A stretch of DNA of 32,000 nt. It comes from Anabaena subtropica FACHB-260 (GTDB taxonomy: Bacteria > Cyanobacteriota > Cyanobacteriia > Cyanobacteriales > Nostocaceae). Where the stretch lies: NCBI RefSeq assembly GCF_014697105.1, contig NZ_JACJRF010000001.1, positions 231,020 through 263,019 on the forward strand. The letters run 5' to 3'. The notes under the pieces were generated by a model. The model worked only from the letters and a program-made list of their open reading frames with translations, had not been told where the DNA came from and did no database searches. The translations under genes were made by a program, and so were the position numbers. Positions 11,265 to 16,540 of this stretch are shown here, in pieces; position 1 is the stretch's first letter; each line of letters opens with the position of its first letter.

Positions 11265-12724
11265 CAAGATTTTAACTGTGTTAGTAATACAACTATTTCA
11301 TCAATGGCTTGCCGTAAAACACTCGCTGGCTGTCCAGATTGATTCACCATAACACTAAAAACTAAAGGTTCATACGTAGGAGGATTCACATATCCAGATA
11401 GAGAAATTGCACCGCTTAAAGTGCCTGTTTTTGCTTGTACAATTCCCTCCGCAGGAGTATTACGCAAGCGGTTTCTCAACGTACCACTTTTCCCAGCCAC
11501 AGGTAAGGAAGCACGATATACATTGGCGACTGGTGTTTTGCTTATTCCTTGCAAAGTTTGTACTAAAGCTTCAGGAGTTATTAAATTACGTCGAGATAAA
11601 CCAGAAGCATCTACCAAAACATAACCTGTGGGATCAACACCTAATTGATTTAAGTTTGTTTTAATAGCTTCTAAACCAATGTCAGCAGTAGTTTTATTCT
11701 GCAATCTGGGTTGTTTAAATGCTAATGTTCTTAATAAAGCCTCAGCATACAAATTATTACTATTTTGATTTGTCTCTATCAACAATTGTGATAAAGGCGG
11801 GGACTGTACAGCAGCTAATTCCTGTTGATTAGCAGCACTAGAAGCAACTAATGTTGTACCCAAACTAATTTTTTCTGTGGATAAGGCACTACGAAAACGT
11901 CGCAGGAAGTAATAATTAGGATCAACTACGGGCAATTCTACTAAATATGGAGTGGAATTAGCTGCAACTTGTCCTTTAATTCGCAGCACTTTTCCTGTTA
12001 AATCACGGCTAACATCAATATAACTTGGTTGATTTGCTGCAACTGTTACAGATTGATTGATTATCAACCATTGTCTTGCTTCATTGGGGTCATTCCACAA
12101 CAATTGTGGAGTCTTACCTACAGTTTGAGGAATGAGTTTTAAACCAAATACATTTTGATTCAAAATAAAACTATTGACTGGCGCACCATAATTTGACTGC
12201 ACATCTTCCCATTGCCAAGTCGAGTTAACAATATCCCCTTGAATATAACTATCATCAGCAATTAGCTGACTAATTTGGGTGATACCTTTCTGTTTTAGTT
12301 GTTGTGCTAGTGATTGCAATTGAGTATCGCTGAGGCTAGGGTCACCTCTACCAACAACAGTGAAATTGCCATTACCATTTTGATAAACTGAGGTACGAAT
12401 ACGAAAGTCTGCACCTAGTTGTTGTAAGGCAGCAGCTGTAGTCAGCAATTTAGCATTAGAAGCGGGAGTGAAGTATTTCTCTGCATCTCGACTGTAGAGT
12501 GTTTGCACGGATGAGAGAGGTTTTACTAAGATACCCCAGCGCACTCGATTAAATAAGGGACGATTAACTATTGTATCTATGGCTGTTCTCAGTTCCGCCG
12601 GACAAATAGATTTTGTGGTGGGTGTAGGTGCGGTTGGGGTTTGGGCTTTAACTAGTTGCTGGGTAACACTAACTTGAACACTAATAAATAATGCCATCAA
12701 GCCAAGAGAAATTTTTCGGGGCAT
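11261..12724 (-). CDS. dacB: D-alanyl-D-alanine carboxypeptidase/endopeptidase (PBP4, peptidase S13)
   Basis: Signal peptide, then the active-site motifs SNAK (TPASNAKLLT), SGLSRRN and KTGT (VQAKTGTLSG). Confidence 0.88.
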   Translation of the reverse strand: MPRKISLGLMALFISVQVSVTQQLVKAQTPTAPTPTTKSICPAELRTAIDTIVNRPLFNRVRWGILVKPLSSVQTLYSRDAEKYFTPASNAKLLTTAAALQQLGADFRIRTSVYQNGNGNFTVVGRGDPSLSDTQLQSLAQQLKQKGITQISQLIADDSYIQGDIVNSTWQWEDVQSNYGAPVNSFILNQNVFGLKLIPQTVGKTPQLLWNDPNEARQWLIINQSVTVAANQPSYIDVSRDLTGKVLRIKGQVAANSTPYLVELPVVDPNYYFLRRFRSALSTEKISLGTTLVASSAANQQELAAVQSPPLSQLLIETNQNSNNLYAEALLRTLAFKQPRLQNKTTADIGLEAIKTNLNQLGVDPTGYVLVDASGLSRRNLITPEALVQTLQGISKTPVANVYRASLPVAGKSGTLRNRLRNTPAEGIVQAKTGTLSGAISLSGYVNPPTYEPLVFSVMVNQSGQPASVLRQAIDEIVVLLTQLKSC

Positions 12725-12821
12725 ACAGAGTGATTAAAACTACTTGACGATGATAGCTTGCTTATGAATTGAACCACTAGGCGCGGGAAAGCATTATTCT
12801 CTATTGAGAGGCTGTTAAACT

Positions 12822-13286
12822 GTGAAAAATCAGTATAATTGCGCTTTTATTGAGTTTATGTCATTAACTGCTGCTGCGATCGCTACTTTAATTGCCACTA
12901 AGGTCTTTGAAACAACCGTAGAGAAAATAACTGAAAGTACAATAGACAAGCTGAAACTGCTACGTCAGAAAATTTGGGACAAGTTCACGGGTAAGCCGAA
13001 AGCGCAAGAAGCTTTAACAAAAGCTGAACAAGGTTCTAAGGAAGATTTAAACTTGGTTACCGCCTACCTACAGGTAGAAATGGATACAGATAGTCAATTT
13101 GGCGAAGAAGTTCAAAGCCTTGCCCAAGAAATTCACCAAGAAATTAATATTGGTAAGATTCAAGGTAAAAATGTCCAAAATGTTTATGGAGGGCAAGGTT
13201 TTCAGAATATTGATAGTAAAGCACCCATCTTTCAAGGTGTAGAAAATAGCCCGATTACTATCAATTACAATAATTCTTCTGATTGA
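12822..13286 (+). CDS. N-terminal helical module plus Q/N/G-rich linker of an NLR-like protein, ended by an in-frame TGA
   Basis: ORF from GTG 12822 (alternative ATG 12858, MSLTAAAIATLIATKVFE...). It is in the same frame as the NB-ARC ORF at 13347, with one TGA at 13284-13286 and 20 sense codons between them. Confidence 0.6.
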   Translation: MKNQYNCAFIEFMSLTAAAIATLIATKVFETTVEKITESTIDKLKLLRQKIWDKFTGKPKAQEALTKAEQGSKEDLNLVTAYLQVEMDTDSQFGEEVQSLAQEIHQEINIGKIQGKNVQNVYGGQGFQNIDSKAPIFQGVENSPITINYNNSSD

Positions 13287-13346
13287 CTACAGTCGCCTGA
13301 ACGGGAACGGGCAGAGTTAAATCCCCATAGTAGAATACCGGAGAAT

Positions 13347-16013
13347 TTGCCCCTGAGTGGGGTAACAAAATTTGTTGGGCGGGAGGAGGAACTGCACACC
13401 CTCCGCCAACTTTTACAGAAAAATGACCGTGTAGCCATTGCGGCTATTGCGGGGATGGGTGGACTGGGTAAAACAGAACTGGCGTTGCAATATGCCATCC
13501 AGCATCGTGAAATTTATACGGGGGGAATTTGCTGGTTATTGCCCAAGTCTGGGGATGTGGGGCTACAAATTGTCCAGTTTGCCAGAACTTATTTTGATTT
13601 AAACCCACCGGATGATTTAGATTTACCCGGACGGGTGCAGTATTGCTGGCGGCGTTGGCGTGAGGGTGAGGTGTTGCTGGTGGTGGATGATGTCAGCGAC
13701 TATGAGGAAGTCAAGCTTTATCTTCCGTCCTCATCTTCTCGGTTTAAAGTGTTGTTGACTTCCCGCCAGCGTTTGGGAAAAATTGCCCAGTTATCTTTAG
13801 ATGTGCTGCAACCAGAGGCGGCGTTAGAGTTGTTGGTGTCGATTATTGGCAAGGAACGGGTTGAAAATGACCTAAACCCCCTGCCCCCTTCCCTACTAGG
13901 GAAGGGGGAGAGTGATTCCCCTCGCCTTGTAGGAGAGGGGTTAGGGGAGAGGTCAGAGGGTGAATTAGTGGCGTTGGGGTTGTGTGAGTGGTTGGGGTAT
14001 TTGCCTTTGGCTGTAGAGTTGGTGGGACGGTATCTGGCACGAAAGCAAGATTTATCGCTGGCGGAAATGTTGCGACGGTTGGAGAATAAGCGACTAGAAC
14101 AACGCGCCTTGATGAAGGCAGAAGCTGATATGACAGCAAAACGAGGTGTGTTAGCTGCTTTTGAGTTGAGTTGGCTGGAATTAGAGGAAAATGATCAGCA
14201 ATTGGGTTGTTTATTAAGTTTATTCGCCGCCGCGCCTATCCCTTGGAAGTTGGTGGAACAGTGCTTACCAGAGGAAGATGAGGAAGATTTAGAAGATATT
14301 AGAGACGATAAGTTGCTGAATCTGCATTTACTCCAGCGTAAAGGTGAGGGAATATATCAACTGCATTCCCTGTTGCGGGAGTTTTTCCAATTTAAGCTTA
14401 GAGGTTTAGAACAGGCAGAGGAATTTAAGCATTCTGTTTGTAGAGTGATGATAGCAGTTGCTCAAGATATTTCTTATACTTCCACACTTGTGCAAATTAA
14501 GAATGTCGCCCCAGCAATACCTCACTTAGCAGAAGTAGCAACCAATCTCTTTCAGTATATTAGTAATGATGATTTAATTTGGGCATTTGTTGGCAACGCT
14601 TTTTTTTATCATGGTCAAGGACTATATGATAAAGCAGTACCTTGGTTTGAGCAGTGCCTAGAAATTACCAAAAAACACTTAGGGGAAGAACATCCATCTG
14701 TCGCCACTAGCCTCAACAACCTAGCGTCACTCTACAAATCCCAAGGGAAATACAGCAAAGCCGAACCCTTGTACATCCAAGCTTTGGCTCTGTATCGCAA
14801 ACTCTTAGGTGAAGAACATCTAGATGTCGCACTCAGTCTCAACAACCTCGCAGCACTCTACGACTCCCAAGGGAAATACAGCGAAGCCGAACCCTTGTAC
14901 ATCCAAGCTTTGGCTCTCAAGCTCAAACTCCTGGGTGAAGAACATCTAGATGTCGCACTTAGCCTCAACAATTTAGCAGAACTCTACAAATCCCAAGGGA
15001 AATACAGCAAAGCCGAACTCTTGTACATCCAAGCTTTGACTCTCAAGCGCAAACTCCTGGGTGAAGAACATCCATCTGTCGCACTTAGCCTCAACAACCT
15101 CACAGCACTCTACCACTCCCAAGGGAAATACAGCGAAGCTGAATTCTTGTTCATCCAAGCTTTGGCACTGCGGCGTAAACTCCTGGGTGAAGAACATCCT
15201 GATGTCGCCCAAAGCCTCAACAACCTAGCTCTACTCTACAAATCCCAAGGAAAATACAGCGAAGCCGAACCCTTGTACATCCAAGCTTTGGCTCTGTGTC
15301 GCAAACTCCTGGGTGAAGAACATCCTGATGTTGCCACTAGCCTCAACAACCTAGCTCTACTCTATGACTCCCAAGGGAAATACAGCGAAGCCGAACTCTT
15401 GTATATCCAAGCTTTGGCACTGCGGCGTAAACTCCTGGGTGAAGAACATCCTGATGTCGCCACTAGCCTCAACAATCTAGCTGGACTCTATGACTTCCAA
15501 GGGAAATACAGCCAAGCCGAACTCTTGTACATCCAAGCTTTGGCTCTGTATCGCAAACTCCTGGGTGAAGAACATCCTGATGTCGCCACTAGCCTCAACA
15601 ACCTAGCGTCACTCTACTACTCCCAAGGGAAATACAGCGAAGCCGAACCCTTGTACATCCAAGCTTTGGCACTGCGGCGCAAACTCCTGGGTGAAGAACA
15701 TCCTGATGTCGCCACTAGCCTCAACAACCTCGCAGCACTCTACGACTCCCAAGGGAAATACAGCGAAGCTGAACCCTTGTACATTCAAGCTTTGGCACTG
15801 CGGCGTAAACTCCTGGGTGAAGAACATCCTGATGTCGCCCAAAGCCTCAACAACCTAGCTGAACTCTACGACTCCCAAGGGAAATACAGCGAAGCCGAAC
15901 CCTTGTACATCCAAGCTTTAGATATTTTTGAGCAACAGTTAGGAGTAAATCATCCTAATACGGTGACTGTGCGTAAAAATTTAGCATATTTGCGTGAGTG
16001 TTTAAACTCATAA
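13347..16013 (+). CDS. NB-ARC (STAND NTPase) plus TPR-repeat protein, NLR-like. May be the 3' part of a split or readthrough gene.
   Basis: P-loop GMGGLGKTELA, Walker B LLVVDDV, LLTSRQR and a GLPLA-like LGYLPLAVEL, followed by about 12 TPR units. The only start before the P-loop is TTG 13347; the first ATG lies inside the P-loop. Confidence 0.8.
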   Translation: MPLSGVTKFVGREEELHTLRQLLQKNDRVAIAAIAGMGGLGKTELALQYAIQHREIYTGGICWLLPKSGDVGLQIVQFARTYFDLNPPDDLDLPGRVQYCWRRWREGEVLLVVDDVSDYEEVKLYLPSSSSRFKVLLTSRQRLGKIAQLSLDVLQPEAALELLVSIIGKERVENDLNPLPPSLLGKGESDSPRLVGEGLGERSEGELVALGLCEWLGYLPLAVELVGRYLARKQDLSLAEMLRRLENKRLEQRALMKAEADMTAKRGVLAAFELSWLELEENDQQLGCLLSLFAAAPIPWKLVEQCLPEEDEEDLEDIRDDKLLNLHLLQRKGEGIYQLHSLLREFFQFKLRGLEQAEEFKHSVCRVMIAVAQDISYTSTLVQIKNVAPAIPHLAEVATNLFQYISNDDLIWAFVGNAFFYHGQGLYDKAVPWFEQCLEITKKHLGEEHPSVATSLNNLASLYKSQGKYSKAEPLYIQALALYRKLLGEEHLDVALSLNNLAALYDSQGKYSEAEPLYIQALALKLKLLGEEHLDVALSLNNLAELYKSQGKYSKAELLYIQALTLKRKLLGEEHPSVALSLNNLTALYHSQGKYSEAEFLFIQALALRRKLLGEEHPDVAQSLNNLALLYKSQGKYSEAEPLYIQALALCRKLLGEEHPDVATSLNNLALLYDSQGKYSEAELLYIQALALRRKLLGEEHPDVATSLNNLAGLYDFQGKYSQAELLYIQALALYRKLLGEEHPDVATSLNNLASLYYSQGKYSEAEPLYIQALALRRKLLGEEHPDVATSLNNLAALYDSQGKYSEAEPLYIQALALRRKLLGEEHPDVAQSLNNLAELYDSQGKYSEAEPLYIQALDIFEQQLGVNHPNTVTVRKNLAYLRECLNS
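13870..13965. repeat. Hairpin-type small dispersed repeat inserted in frame within the NB-ARC domain
   Basis: Palindrome CCCCCTTCCCTA-C-TAGGGAAGGGGG (13884-13908) and hairpin CCCCTC...GAGGGG (13918-13940). Together they encode LNPLPPSLLGKGESDSPRLVGEGLGERSEG between conserved NB-ARC helices. Borders are approximate. Confidence 0.65.
14679..15938 (+). repeat. Tandem 126-bp repeat array (ten near-identical 42-aa TPR units)
   Basis: The unit LGEEHPDVATSLNNLAxLYxSQGKYSEAEPLYIQALALRRKL recurs ten times with very high nucleotide identity. Degenerate units flank the array. Confidence 0.9.
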
Positions 16014-16076
16014 GCAGAATAATCAGGTTCATTCTTAAATACGCGATGCTGGCGGCGATGCTTTTCTACATTTAAA

Positions 16077-16309
16077 CACAAACTTTGGTGTTCTAACCTC
16101 GAACTTTCGTGTTCTGAACTCGAAGTTTTCTGTTTCAAGTGAGAATGTTTCTGTTTCAAGTGAGAATGTTCTTGTTTCAAGTGAGAATGTTTCTGTTTCA
16201 GGTGAGAATGTTTCTGTTTTAAGTGAGAACATTCCTGTTTTAAAGGAGAACATTTTTGTTTTAAGCGAGAACGTTTTAGTTTCAGGTGAGAACGTTCCTG
16301 TTTTAAGGT
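16077..16309. repeat. Non-coding tandem array of about 11 units of 21 bp
   Basis: The unit TGTTTCAAGTGAGAATGTTTC is identical or near-identical at 16121-16204 and degenerates toward both flanks. There are no spacers. Confidence 0.85.
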
Positions 16310-16340
16310 GAGTTCGACGAATAAAAAACCCCTCTCGAAA

Positions 16341-16540
16341 CCTCTCCCCTGCAAGGAGCTACGGTGTACACACAAGTCTGATAAACTTTGCCCTATAACG
16401 TTTTGATCCCCCCTAACCCCCCTTAGAAAAGGGGGAACAAGAATCAAAGTCCCCCTTTTGAAGGGGGATTTAGGGGGATCAAACTACATTTTGCACCTAG
16501 CACAAGGATGTGTGTACACGGTAGCCTGCAAGGAGAGAGG
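16341..16540. repeat. MITE-like palindromic element (two ~90-nt imperfect inverted arms)
   Basis: The left arm CCTCTCCCCTGCAAGGAGCTACGGTGTACACAC...GATCCCCCCTAACCCCCCTTAGAAAAGGGGG pairs imperfectly with the reverse complement of 16451-16540. Inner hairpins are CCCCCTT-AGAA-AAGGGGG and CCCCCTT-TTG-AAGGGGG. Confidence 0.7.

Follow-up and report, generated by a model that had tools for sequence, protein, structure and literature searches.

A conserved UGA codon and a predicted RNA pseudoknot between a Bell-like gene and an NB-ARC/TPR gene of Anabaena subtropica point to programmed stop codon readthrough

Two open reading frames in one frame around a single stop

We analysed a stretch of 32,000 nucleotides (nt) from Anabaena subtropica FACHB-260, hereafter the window, in which a gene for a small helical protein is followed in the same frame by a gene for a NOD-like receptor (NLR)-like protein. 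Here we describe the junction between the two genes, a stop codon with an RNA element directly after it, which we refer to as the cassette. The open reading frames (ORFs) 12822-13286 and 13347-16013 share a common frame, and the only stop that lies between them is the TGA at 13284-13286. The small protein ends in ...SPITINYNNSSD before this codon, and the residues after the stop begin with LQSPER. The 20 codons past the TGA are all sense codons (LQSPERERAELNPHSRIPEN) and are followed by LPLSGVTKFVGREEEL and by the P-loop GMGGLGKT (13452-13475). The ORF that follows the stop comprises 908 codons and is of the NB-ARC/TPR type. No ATG is present in it ahead of the P-loop. TTG 13347 is its sole canonical start, and a GGAG (13340-13343) lies 3 nt on the 5' side of this codon. 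This layout, including the single TGA, the missing ATG and the close GGAG, had been pointed out in the initial annotation and is borne out by the window sequence. The elements of the locus are as follows.

12858..13283, plus strand: ORF of the short product, 142 amino acids (aa), with a predicted Bell-like helical domain (residues 1 to ~103, N-terminal hydrophobic helix) and a G/N/Q-rich tail
13167..13283, plus strand: C-terminal amyloid-like motif region, residues ~104-142, NIGKIQGKNVQNVYGGQGFQNIDSKAPIFQGVENSPITINYNNSSD, conserved in the alignment and predicted to be disordered
13284..13286, plus strand: candidate recoded stop UGA, followed by C at 13287, conserved across the cassette loci
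13287..13294, plus strand: 8-nt spacer CUACAGUC from the stop to the pseudoknot, near-invariant in alignments A4 and A5
13295..13325, plus strand: predicted H-type RNA pseudoknot, based on RNAalifold, pair counts and covariation
13326..13370, plus strand: linker codons from the pseudoknot to the FVGR lead-in, with coding-like conservation, holding the annotators' candidate start TTG 13347
13371..14099, plus strand: NB-ARC domain (STAND NTPase), from FVGREEEL through the P-loop (Pfam PF00931, E = 1.4e-12, post-stop residues 33-271)
14100..16013, plus strand: sensor region, helical and with 11 TPR units (Pfam TPR_10 and TPR_12, E about 1e-155), with its stop at 16011-16013
12858..16013, plus strand: putative readthrough product of 142 + 1 + 908 = 1051 residues, the frame being open save for one TGA

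Conservation of the stop, the frame and the RNA element

The search for related loci was seeded with the closer alignment A2, as alignment A1 was too diverse to serve as a seed. A genome scan in which each species was represented by a single genome gave 79 loci that encode relatives of the small protein, and a 25-nt cassette pattern retrieved 56 metagenome contigs. The pooled set comprises 107 distinct loci from genomes and metagenomes and covers at least 15 cyanobacterial genera. The cassette loci of the genome scan belong to Nostoc, Scytonema, Brasilonema, Tolypothrix, Calothrix, Rivularia, Fischerella, Plectonema, Hassallia, Iphinoe, Iningainema and Thainema, as well as to coleofasciculacean and microcoleacean metagenome-assembled genomes. 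The cassette is also carried by Nostoc punctiforme PCC 73102, in which the small ORF is Npun_R4604. The cassette pattern had no match in viral contigs.

In 46 of the 79 loci, the window included, the small ORF ends with TGA and an NB-ARC P-loop follows in frame with no stop in between. In these loci, the stop and the P-loop are 150, 153, 156, 165 or 186 nt apart, always a multiple of 3, and between the stop codon and FVGR the loci exhibit no stops in frame 0, versus 86 and 63 in the other frames. Twelve more loci exhibit the same junction and stop before other in-frame ORFs. One of these, L080, was reached through the protein P0213, which appears in the database as a fusion with a tryptophan at the junction; this candidate was rejected as artificial, since the gene had been called under a code with TGA as Trp and the DNA has TGA. 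Over the 107 loci, the median length without a stop is 531 codons in frame 0, versus 10 and 14 in the other frames, and 101 loci keep frame 0 open for 100 codons or more or up to the end of the contig. On nearly all metagenome contigs, the ORF that ends at the TGA encodes ~115-180 aa, and no further stop interrupts frame 0 for hundreds of codons. Insertions and deletions between the pseudoknot and the FVGR lead-in are multiples of 3. In one locus (L027, 5412-5450), a +1 insertion in the loop region of the pseudoknot, which reads CGGGG and not CGGG, is followed ~27 nt later by a -1 deletion. This compensated shift, which lies 5' of every candidate start, keeps both the nucleotide element and the overall frame.

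The stop itself is TGA in 106 of the 107 loci and TAG in one. The +4 base, which follows the stop, is C in all 107 loci; this base was fixed by the pattern used for the metagenome set, and it is likewise C in 58 of 58 loci of the protein-similarity set. The codon after the stop is CUA in most loci (UGA-CUA). A sense codon such as TGG or CGA, whose presence in orthologues had been considered in the initial annotation, was not found at the stop site; an exhaustive profile search yielded 733 relatives, with P0213 as the one apparent fusion in this family.

Downstream of the stop, the window sequence can be arranged as an H-type pseudoknot, in the order UGA, the 8-nt spacer CUACAGUC, GCCUG, AAC, GGGA, A, CGGGC, AGAGUUAAA and UCCC (13284-13325). 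The first stem (S1) pairs 13295-13299 (GCCUG) with 13308-13312 (CGGGC), and the second stem (S2) pairs 13303-13306 (GGGA) with 13322-13325 (UCCC); the loops are AAC (L1), A (L2) and AGAGUUAAA (L3). RNAalifold returned the 5-bp hairpin of S1 with compensatory changes, and the pairing of its loop to the downstream UCCC was seen by inspection. Among 46 sequences, 97.9% of the cells are paired and changes on both sides are observed in five of the nine pairs; among 35 diverse sequences the values are 95.6% and seven of nine. None of 500 shuffles reached the observed pairing values in either set, and slid registers all scored far lower; the model was derived from the same sequences as those used to support it. 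The most divergent locus, L053, which is the one with a UAG stop, exhibits rewritten stems (GUCGAG/CUCGAC and GCAGA/UCUGC) with the 8-nt spacer, the loop layout and nine pairs kept, and L056 is likewise rewritten with its pairing kept. When the pseudoknot core was searched without requiring a stop, TGA was found directly before it in 95 of 95 cases. A strict pseudoknot rule was satisfied by 18 of 5000 shuffles of the window sequence and by 5 of 1205 control stops, three of these five being further copies of the cassette. The Rfam scan of 12500-14000, with E up to 10, gave no match at the junction.

The conservation profile singles out the same segment. The mean pairwise identity in successive 15-nt bins from +0 to +45 is 0.83, 0.80 and 0.78, with 0.56 just before and 0.58 just after. 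By codon position (first/second/third), conservation is 0.76/0.80/0.58 in the last 50 codons of the small ORF, 0.74/0.81/0.83 in codons 1-14 (the cassette), 0.61/0.67/0.48 in codons 15-27 (the linker, coding-like) and 0.75/0.85/0.47 in codons 28-80 (the start of NB-ARC). The relaxation of the third position is absent in the cassette only, an indication that the constraint there acts on the RNA.

Start codons for the downstream NLR are scarce. Between the TGA and FVGR, no ATG, GTG or TTG is present in 20 of the 46 NB-ARC loci, and in four none is present before the P-loop; an ATG before FVGR occurs in none of the 46. Among the 92 loci with a P-loop, 45 exhibit no canonical start earlier than 25 codons before the P-loop and 17 none earlier than 10 codons before it, while 72 have no ATG. 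L043 exhibits neither a canonical nor a near-cognate start before FVGR. Where candidate start codons are present, they lie at differing codons among loci, and no position is conserved. This variation is mirrored in the inconsistent NLR N-termini in databases (MPLSGV..., MLKFVGRE..., MGREHQ...), many of them in entries marked as partial; the NLR of N. punctiforme PCC 73102 is annotated from a GTG 25 codons past the TGA, in frame. The comparison thus documents conservation of the stop, of the frame, of the pseudoknot and of the lack of start codons.

The two proteins, their relatives and the genomic context

The upstream ORF had been delimited as 12822-13286; its frame and stop stand, and its start is most likely the ATG at 12858. 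A 142-aa hypothetical protein of Anabaena subtropica has exactly the sequence of the resulting product (100% identity). The start codon of the homologues (the M of MEPV...) corresponds to ATT in the window, and ATG 12858 aligns with their V, which makes the window copy three residues shorter and deprives it of the conserved acidic residue 2. All 81 database homologues are free-standing proteins of 129-167 aa, none being fused, and from these sequences the small protein is a conserved free-standing product. The alignment reveals an N-terminus with MEP and a hydrophobic helix (MEP and LTAAAIATL), a helical body and a conserved C-terminus rich in G, N and Q. In the AlphaFold2 prediction, residues 1 to ~103 form a helical bundle, with a predicted local distance difference test (pLDDT) score of ~90 over residues 31-100, and residues 104-144 are disordered (pLDDT below 50). 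Pfam and NCBIfam, neither of which holds a Bell model, returned nothing significant for the small ORF. Bell-domain effectors are described by Dyrka et al. (bioRxiv 10.1101/2020.01.06.895854) as proteins of 120-140 aa that begin with a hydrophobic helix, have an acidic second or third residue and carry a motif at the C-terminus. The size, the hydrophobic helix, the predicted helical bundle and, in the homologues, the acidic residue at position 2 or 3 agree with this description. Judging from these features, the upstream ORF probably encodes a Bell-like effector with a helical domain that is probably membrane-targeting and an amyloid-like tail.

The downstream ORF, with NB-ARC and its P-loop followed by a TPR array, has the NB-ARC-TPR composition of STAND NTPases in the Pfam analysis. 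In paralogous NLRs, the same lead-in, IPQNLPLSGVxxFVGRE, is preceded by an EAD4 domain or by an amyloid-like motif, so the lead-in segment is normally internal, as had been proposed for IPENLP-SGV--FVGRE of the window in the initial annotation. The TPR array of the window comprises 9.8 tandem copies of a 126-nt unit (14685-15919) with 88% identity, as detected with a tandem repeat finder. Such near-identical repeats recombine readily, and this is the probable reason why NLR lengths vary so much and why gene models in other assemblies are truncated or partial.

In the window, the amyloid-like motif is not found on both proteins: there is none between the stop and FVGR, and the readthrough product would carry one. 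About 20 sister loci (L060-L079) belong to the same family of small proteins without having the cassette. Their NLR lies in another frame or behind further stops, has its own ATG 11 nt past the stop and begins with a near-copy of the effector tail (effector end ...QDNAKGWQTKVEGGTVYQGDINIHH, NLR start MNQSNQDNAKGWQTQVEGGTVYQGDIRINNY...). More distant relatives are uninterrupted effector-motif-NB-ARC-TPR fusions (P0313, 957 aa, and P0324, 967 aa). The cassette family is intermediate between these two-gene pairs and all-in-one fusions, as it exhibits a single copy of the motif and an NLR without a motif and often without a start. For an NLR that lacks both, only translation through the stop would supply an N-terminal module.

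The cassette is also found with a variety of partners. In-frame downstream partners other than the NB-ARC/TPR type include a NACHT-HEAT-NCC-H protein of 1042 codons (L033), a different NB-ARC protein with APAF1_C of 1432 codons (L041), a protein of the AAA_16/NPHP3_N type (L047) and a transmembrane protein rich in Ser and Pro (L032); two further partners are small ORFs without a Pfam match. On the upstream side, 41 of the 51 metagenome ORFs long enough to test match the Bell-like profile, and the others are divergent small proteins that begin with MEP or MDP and a hydrophobic helix and end with a tail of G, N, Q and hydrophobic residues. In one contig (L115, JAAUYH010089630.1), the cassette follows an alpha/beta-hydrolase-like ORF of 301 aa (DUF676/PGAP1-like), which recalls the fungal SesB-type lipase effectors associated with NLRs. 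Second copies of the cassette are present on two of the metagenomic contigs (L083, position 4003; L134, position 8112), and two to three cassette loci with different downstream sensors are present in Nostoc sp. LPT, Iphinoe HA4291, Tolypothrix campylonemoides and Scytonema hyalinum.

Two types of small insertion were observed in the NLR genes. In the window, a palindromic in-frame insert (13865-13957) encoding about PLPPSLLGKGESDSPRLVGEGLGERS lies within the NB-ARC coding region and contains a perfect 12-nt inverted repeat (13884-13895 / 13897-13908). The orthologues P0084 and P0087 lack it and P0082 has a similar insert, and it looks like a small mobile hairpin element tolerated in the ORF; the only Rfam matches obtained were chance miRNA-like matches to this insert. 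An identical 21-nt in-frame insertion (MSTTGYAY) is present just before the P-loop, ~150 nt past the stop, in L015 and L016, and also in P0100, an unrelated paralogue with an EAD4 N-terminus, which suggests gene conversion or a tiny mobile insert.

The genes around the window locus are housekeeping genes, encoding an NDH/Mrp-type membrane subunit, a D-Ala-D-Ala carboxypeptidase, a histidine kinase, a Mur ligase and DapB. In contrast, genes for a HicA toxin, a UPF0150 (HicB-like) protein and a MazE antitoxin lie just 3' of the cassette NLR of N. punctiforme PCC 73102 (L137, 7567-8455), which suggests a defence or toxin-antitoxin neighbourhood. A promoter and terminator scan of 12500-16400 gave no signal beyond that expected from shuffles and placed no terminator between the two ORFs. 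On the minus strand, a 165-aa ORF with a TTG start (15950-16447) overlaps the 3' end of the NLR gene and is probably spurious.

Readthrough, its alternatives and comparison with known systems

We consider it likely, from the comparison of sequences, that the stop is read through by design, that is, by programmed UGA readthrough. Taken as a whole, the data would be well explained by a single translational unit with a programmed leaky UGA giving both an effector and a fusion, and this account is probably the right one. Readthrough that sets the ratio of the N-terminal module to the full-length receptor was among the possibilities raised in the initial annotation, and it is the one that the comparative evidence strongly supports. 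In this model, most ribosomes would stop at 13284-13286 and release an abundant 142-aa effector, whereas in a minority the UGA would be read by a near-cognate tRNA, with tRNA-Trp as the most likely one, and translation would go on in frame. The rare fusion of ~1051 aa would carry the effector and its motif at the N-terminus of the NB-ARC/TPR sensor. Readthrough itself, the tRNA used, the ratio of the products and the amyloid signalling described below are what we infer from the conserved features.

Readthrough would be promoted by the weak UGA-C context and by the compact H-type pseudoknot 8 nt past the stop. UGA-C is present in all loci but the UAG-bearing L053, mostly as UGA-CUA, and UGA-C is also a weak context for the bacterial release factor 2 (RF2). 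That the predicted pseudoknot acts as a readthrough stimulator is also probable, although we hold this with somewhat less confidence than readthrough as such. Leaky termination has been associated with a C at +4, above all where the stop is UGA. UGA-CUA is among the contexts known to allow readthrough, which is enhanced by structures on the 3' side (PMC7026636); the leaky contexts are stated there for "various organisms", in viral and eukaryotic genes.

Whether the products engage in amyloid signalling is, in our view, evenly balanced, this step being drawn by analogy with HET-S/NWD2 and with Bab/Agp. Triggering of the TPR sensor would lead to NB-ARC oligomers, the clustered N-terminal motifs could then nucleate the fold, and the nucleated fold could template the free effector and thereby cause cell death. 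A single copy of the motif would serve both roles, and the stop codon would set the effector-to-sensor ratio. A regulated switch, in which readthrough responds to RF2 activity, to the supply or modification of tRNA-Trp, to temperature or to phage-perturbed termination, is doubtful. It would make the level of the fusion, and hence the threshold for cell death, a report of translational stress or infection, a possibility that we regard as equally speculative; this level could also vary among the cells of a filament, as bet-hedging or as part of developmental cell death. It would be a corollary that, with the motif encoded only once, identity between the templating and the templated copy is guaranteed and two copies need not co-evolve. 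Effector and sensor modules could then be freely shuffled, as the many partners of the cassette suggest.

Several points weigh against readthrough or parts of the model. All the support for readthrough is comparative, and the literature searched contains no demonstration of pseudoknot-stimulated readthrough on bacterial ribosomes. The two stems, of 5 and 4 bp (about -5.8 and -4.4 kcal/mol), are short, and the 111-nt region 13272-13382 is no more stable than its shuffles (z = 0.05), so that thermodynamics alone would miss the element. The covariation in S2 comes mostly from a few divergent sequences. About 5% of the cassette loci exhibit short downstream ORFs. With regard to the effector, Foldseek gave no match to the PDB with E below 1 and a profile search of PDB sequences gave nothing, and membership of the Bell or HeLo families is therefore not demonstrable structurally; the label of amyloid-like for its tail is based on predicted disorder and on G/N/Q-rich composition. 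Finally, some canonical start (GTG or TTG) is present before FVGR in 26 of the 46 loci, and the window itself has TTG 13347, so that independent initiation is possible there.

This last point leads to the explanation that survives best after readthrough, namely two ordinary genes, with the NLR initiated independently (from TTG 13347 in the window) and the RNA element serving another purpose such as mRNA stability, translational coupling or the control of NLR initiation. Besides the GTG or TTG codons and the GGAG close to TTG 13347, it can draw on the AUA or AUU Ile codon found at codon 16 in most loci, a possible rare start, and on the annotation of two genes by the pipelines. However, canonical starts before FVGR are lacking in the 20 loci mentioned above, 17 of the 92 P-loop loci have none earlier than 10 codons before the P-loop, and L043 lacks even a near-cognate one. 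Moreover, no start position is conserved, and the GGAG is only 3 nt from the TTG and is missing in the homologues. Independent initiation also leaves unexplained the asymmetry in stops (0 versus 86 and 63), the indels in multiples of 3, the compensated shift of L027 upstream of all starts, and the fact that sister NLRs with a real start have their own motif, whereas the cassette NLRs have none. We therefore regard two separately initiated genes as unlikely. A two-protein arrangement had been considered in the initial annotation; its free small protein is borne out by the homologues, but its NLR has no start of its own in about half of the loci.

Termination followed by a restart at the next codon without a start codon, the pseudoknot holding the ribosome, would likewise require a conserved frame, the absence of stops and no start, and it would keep two proteins as annotated, with an NLR beginning LQSPER.... 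The first codon after the stop is, however, mostly CUA, which is not a near-cognate start, and the NLR would have no effector or motif, unlike all characterised paralogue architectures. To our knowledge, no such mechanism exists in bacteria, and we consider it very improbable. Even less credit can be given to a dedicated decoding of UGA, either as selenocysteine, with the hairpin as a selenocysteine insertion sequence (SECIS), or by a specialised suppressor tRNA. A conserved hairpin 8 nt past the UGA fits the geometry of a bacterial SECIS, but a family member with UAG and the same pseudoknot argues against selenocysteine, no homologue has Cys or any sense codon at the stop site, this site lies in a variable linker and not in a redox centre, and no tRNA gene is present in the window. 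The selenocysteine trait was also not detected in Cyanobacteria. In-frame stop hopping was rejected, as the take-off codon of the window, GAT, has no matching landing codon downstream. Finally, a recent nonsense mutation in a decaying gene, or a sequencing or assembly error at 13284-13286, both put forward initially, is ruled out by the identical position of the stop in more than 100 loci of many genera (107 loci from independent genomes and metagenomes), with long intact downstream ORFs and a conserved context. In a lone sequence, one in-frame stop inside an apparent single gene is the classic signature of such an event.

If programmed readthrough is confirmed, the cassette would represent a modular recoding element that is conserved in cellular genes of bacteria and in which a stop codon and a compact pseudoknot derive two products from one frame. 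In the literature searched, and leaving selenocysteine and pyrrolysine aside, programmed readthrough driven by a dedicated RNA structure is documented solely in viruses that infect eukaryotes and in a small number of eukaryotic genes, and for no bacterial gene; the arrangement of effector, stop, pseudoknot and NLR is not described there either, and Npun_R4603 and Npun_R4604 are not named. Confirmation would also correct the annotation of more than 100 cyanobacterial STAND/NLR genes, now partial or given arbitrary TTG or GTG starts, and would add a third architecture of amyloid-signalling immunity between two-gene pairs and all-in-one fusions. The portable element of ~45 nt could be used for studying the response of the ribosome and RF2 to downstream structure and, in synthetic biology, for setting expression ratios.

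With regard to known recoding systems, the gag-pol junction of murine leukaemia virus (MuLV) also exhibits an in-frame stop between an abundant short product and a rare fusion, followed by a spacer, which is 8 nt long in MuLV, and an H-type pseudoknot; the identity of the stop and the first downstream bases are conserved, as they are here. This viral readthrough signal and its pseudoknot have been described (PMC5009743, PMC7026636). Unlike MuLV, the cassette lies in a bacterial chromosomal gene, would act on 70S ribosomes and RF2, and carries UGA-C rather than UAG-G, and its readthrough is predicted from sequence. Its pseudoknot is also much smaller (~31 nt, 5 + 4 bp), a size that resembles that of luteovirus-type pseudoknots.

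In phage Q-beta, bacterial ribosomes read through the UGA of the coat gene at a low rate, which yields A1, a minor C-terminally extended protein needed beside the major one. No dedicated pseudoknot is known for A1, and Q-beta differs in that the gene is a phage gene and the extension a structural domain and not a STAND NTPase. Selenocysteine insertion likewise comprises a UGA closely trailed by a conserved stem-loop. In contrast to selenocysteine genes, the family has a UAG variant, no Cys homologues and a stop in a linker; no selenocysteine machinery has been reported in cyanobacteria.

With regard to immune systems, the Bell/BASS pairs share with the window a helical protein of ~140 aa with a hydrophobic helix and a disordered motif, encoded colinearly just 5' of an NB-ARC/TPR gene. 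The acidic residue 2 is also present in the homologues of the window protein, and the range in filamentous cyanobacteria is common to both. BASS pairs are defined by a motif on both the C-terminus of the effector and the N-terminus of the NLR (Dyrka et al., bioRxiv 10.1101/2020.01.06.895854), and the sister loci of the window family exhibit this textbook layout. Unlike these pairs, the cassette NLR lacks its own motif and, in many loci, a start codon, and the single motif is followed by the conserved stop and pseudoknot. A comparable Bell/BASS system is Bab/Agp of E. coli (bioRxiv 10.1101/2024.11.07.622273), and neither of these two studies mentions stop codons or readthrough. The all-in-one Bell-NLR fusions, which are rare (Dyrka et al., bioRxiv 10.1101/2020.01.06.895854), exhibit the same effector-motif-NB-ARC-TPR architecture as the putative readthrough product without interruption, as in P0313 and P0324. 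In contrast, the window family is interrupted by a conserved stop and would, judging from its sequences, also yield a free effector. Finally, HET-S/NWD2 is, unlike the cassette, a eukaryotic system of two genes with two motif copies and without recoding. Nevertheless, the logic that we propose is the same, with the N-terminal motif of an NLR templating the C-terminal motif of a pore-forming effector.

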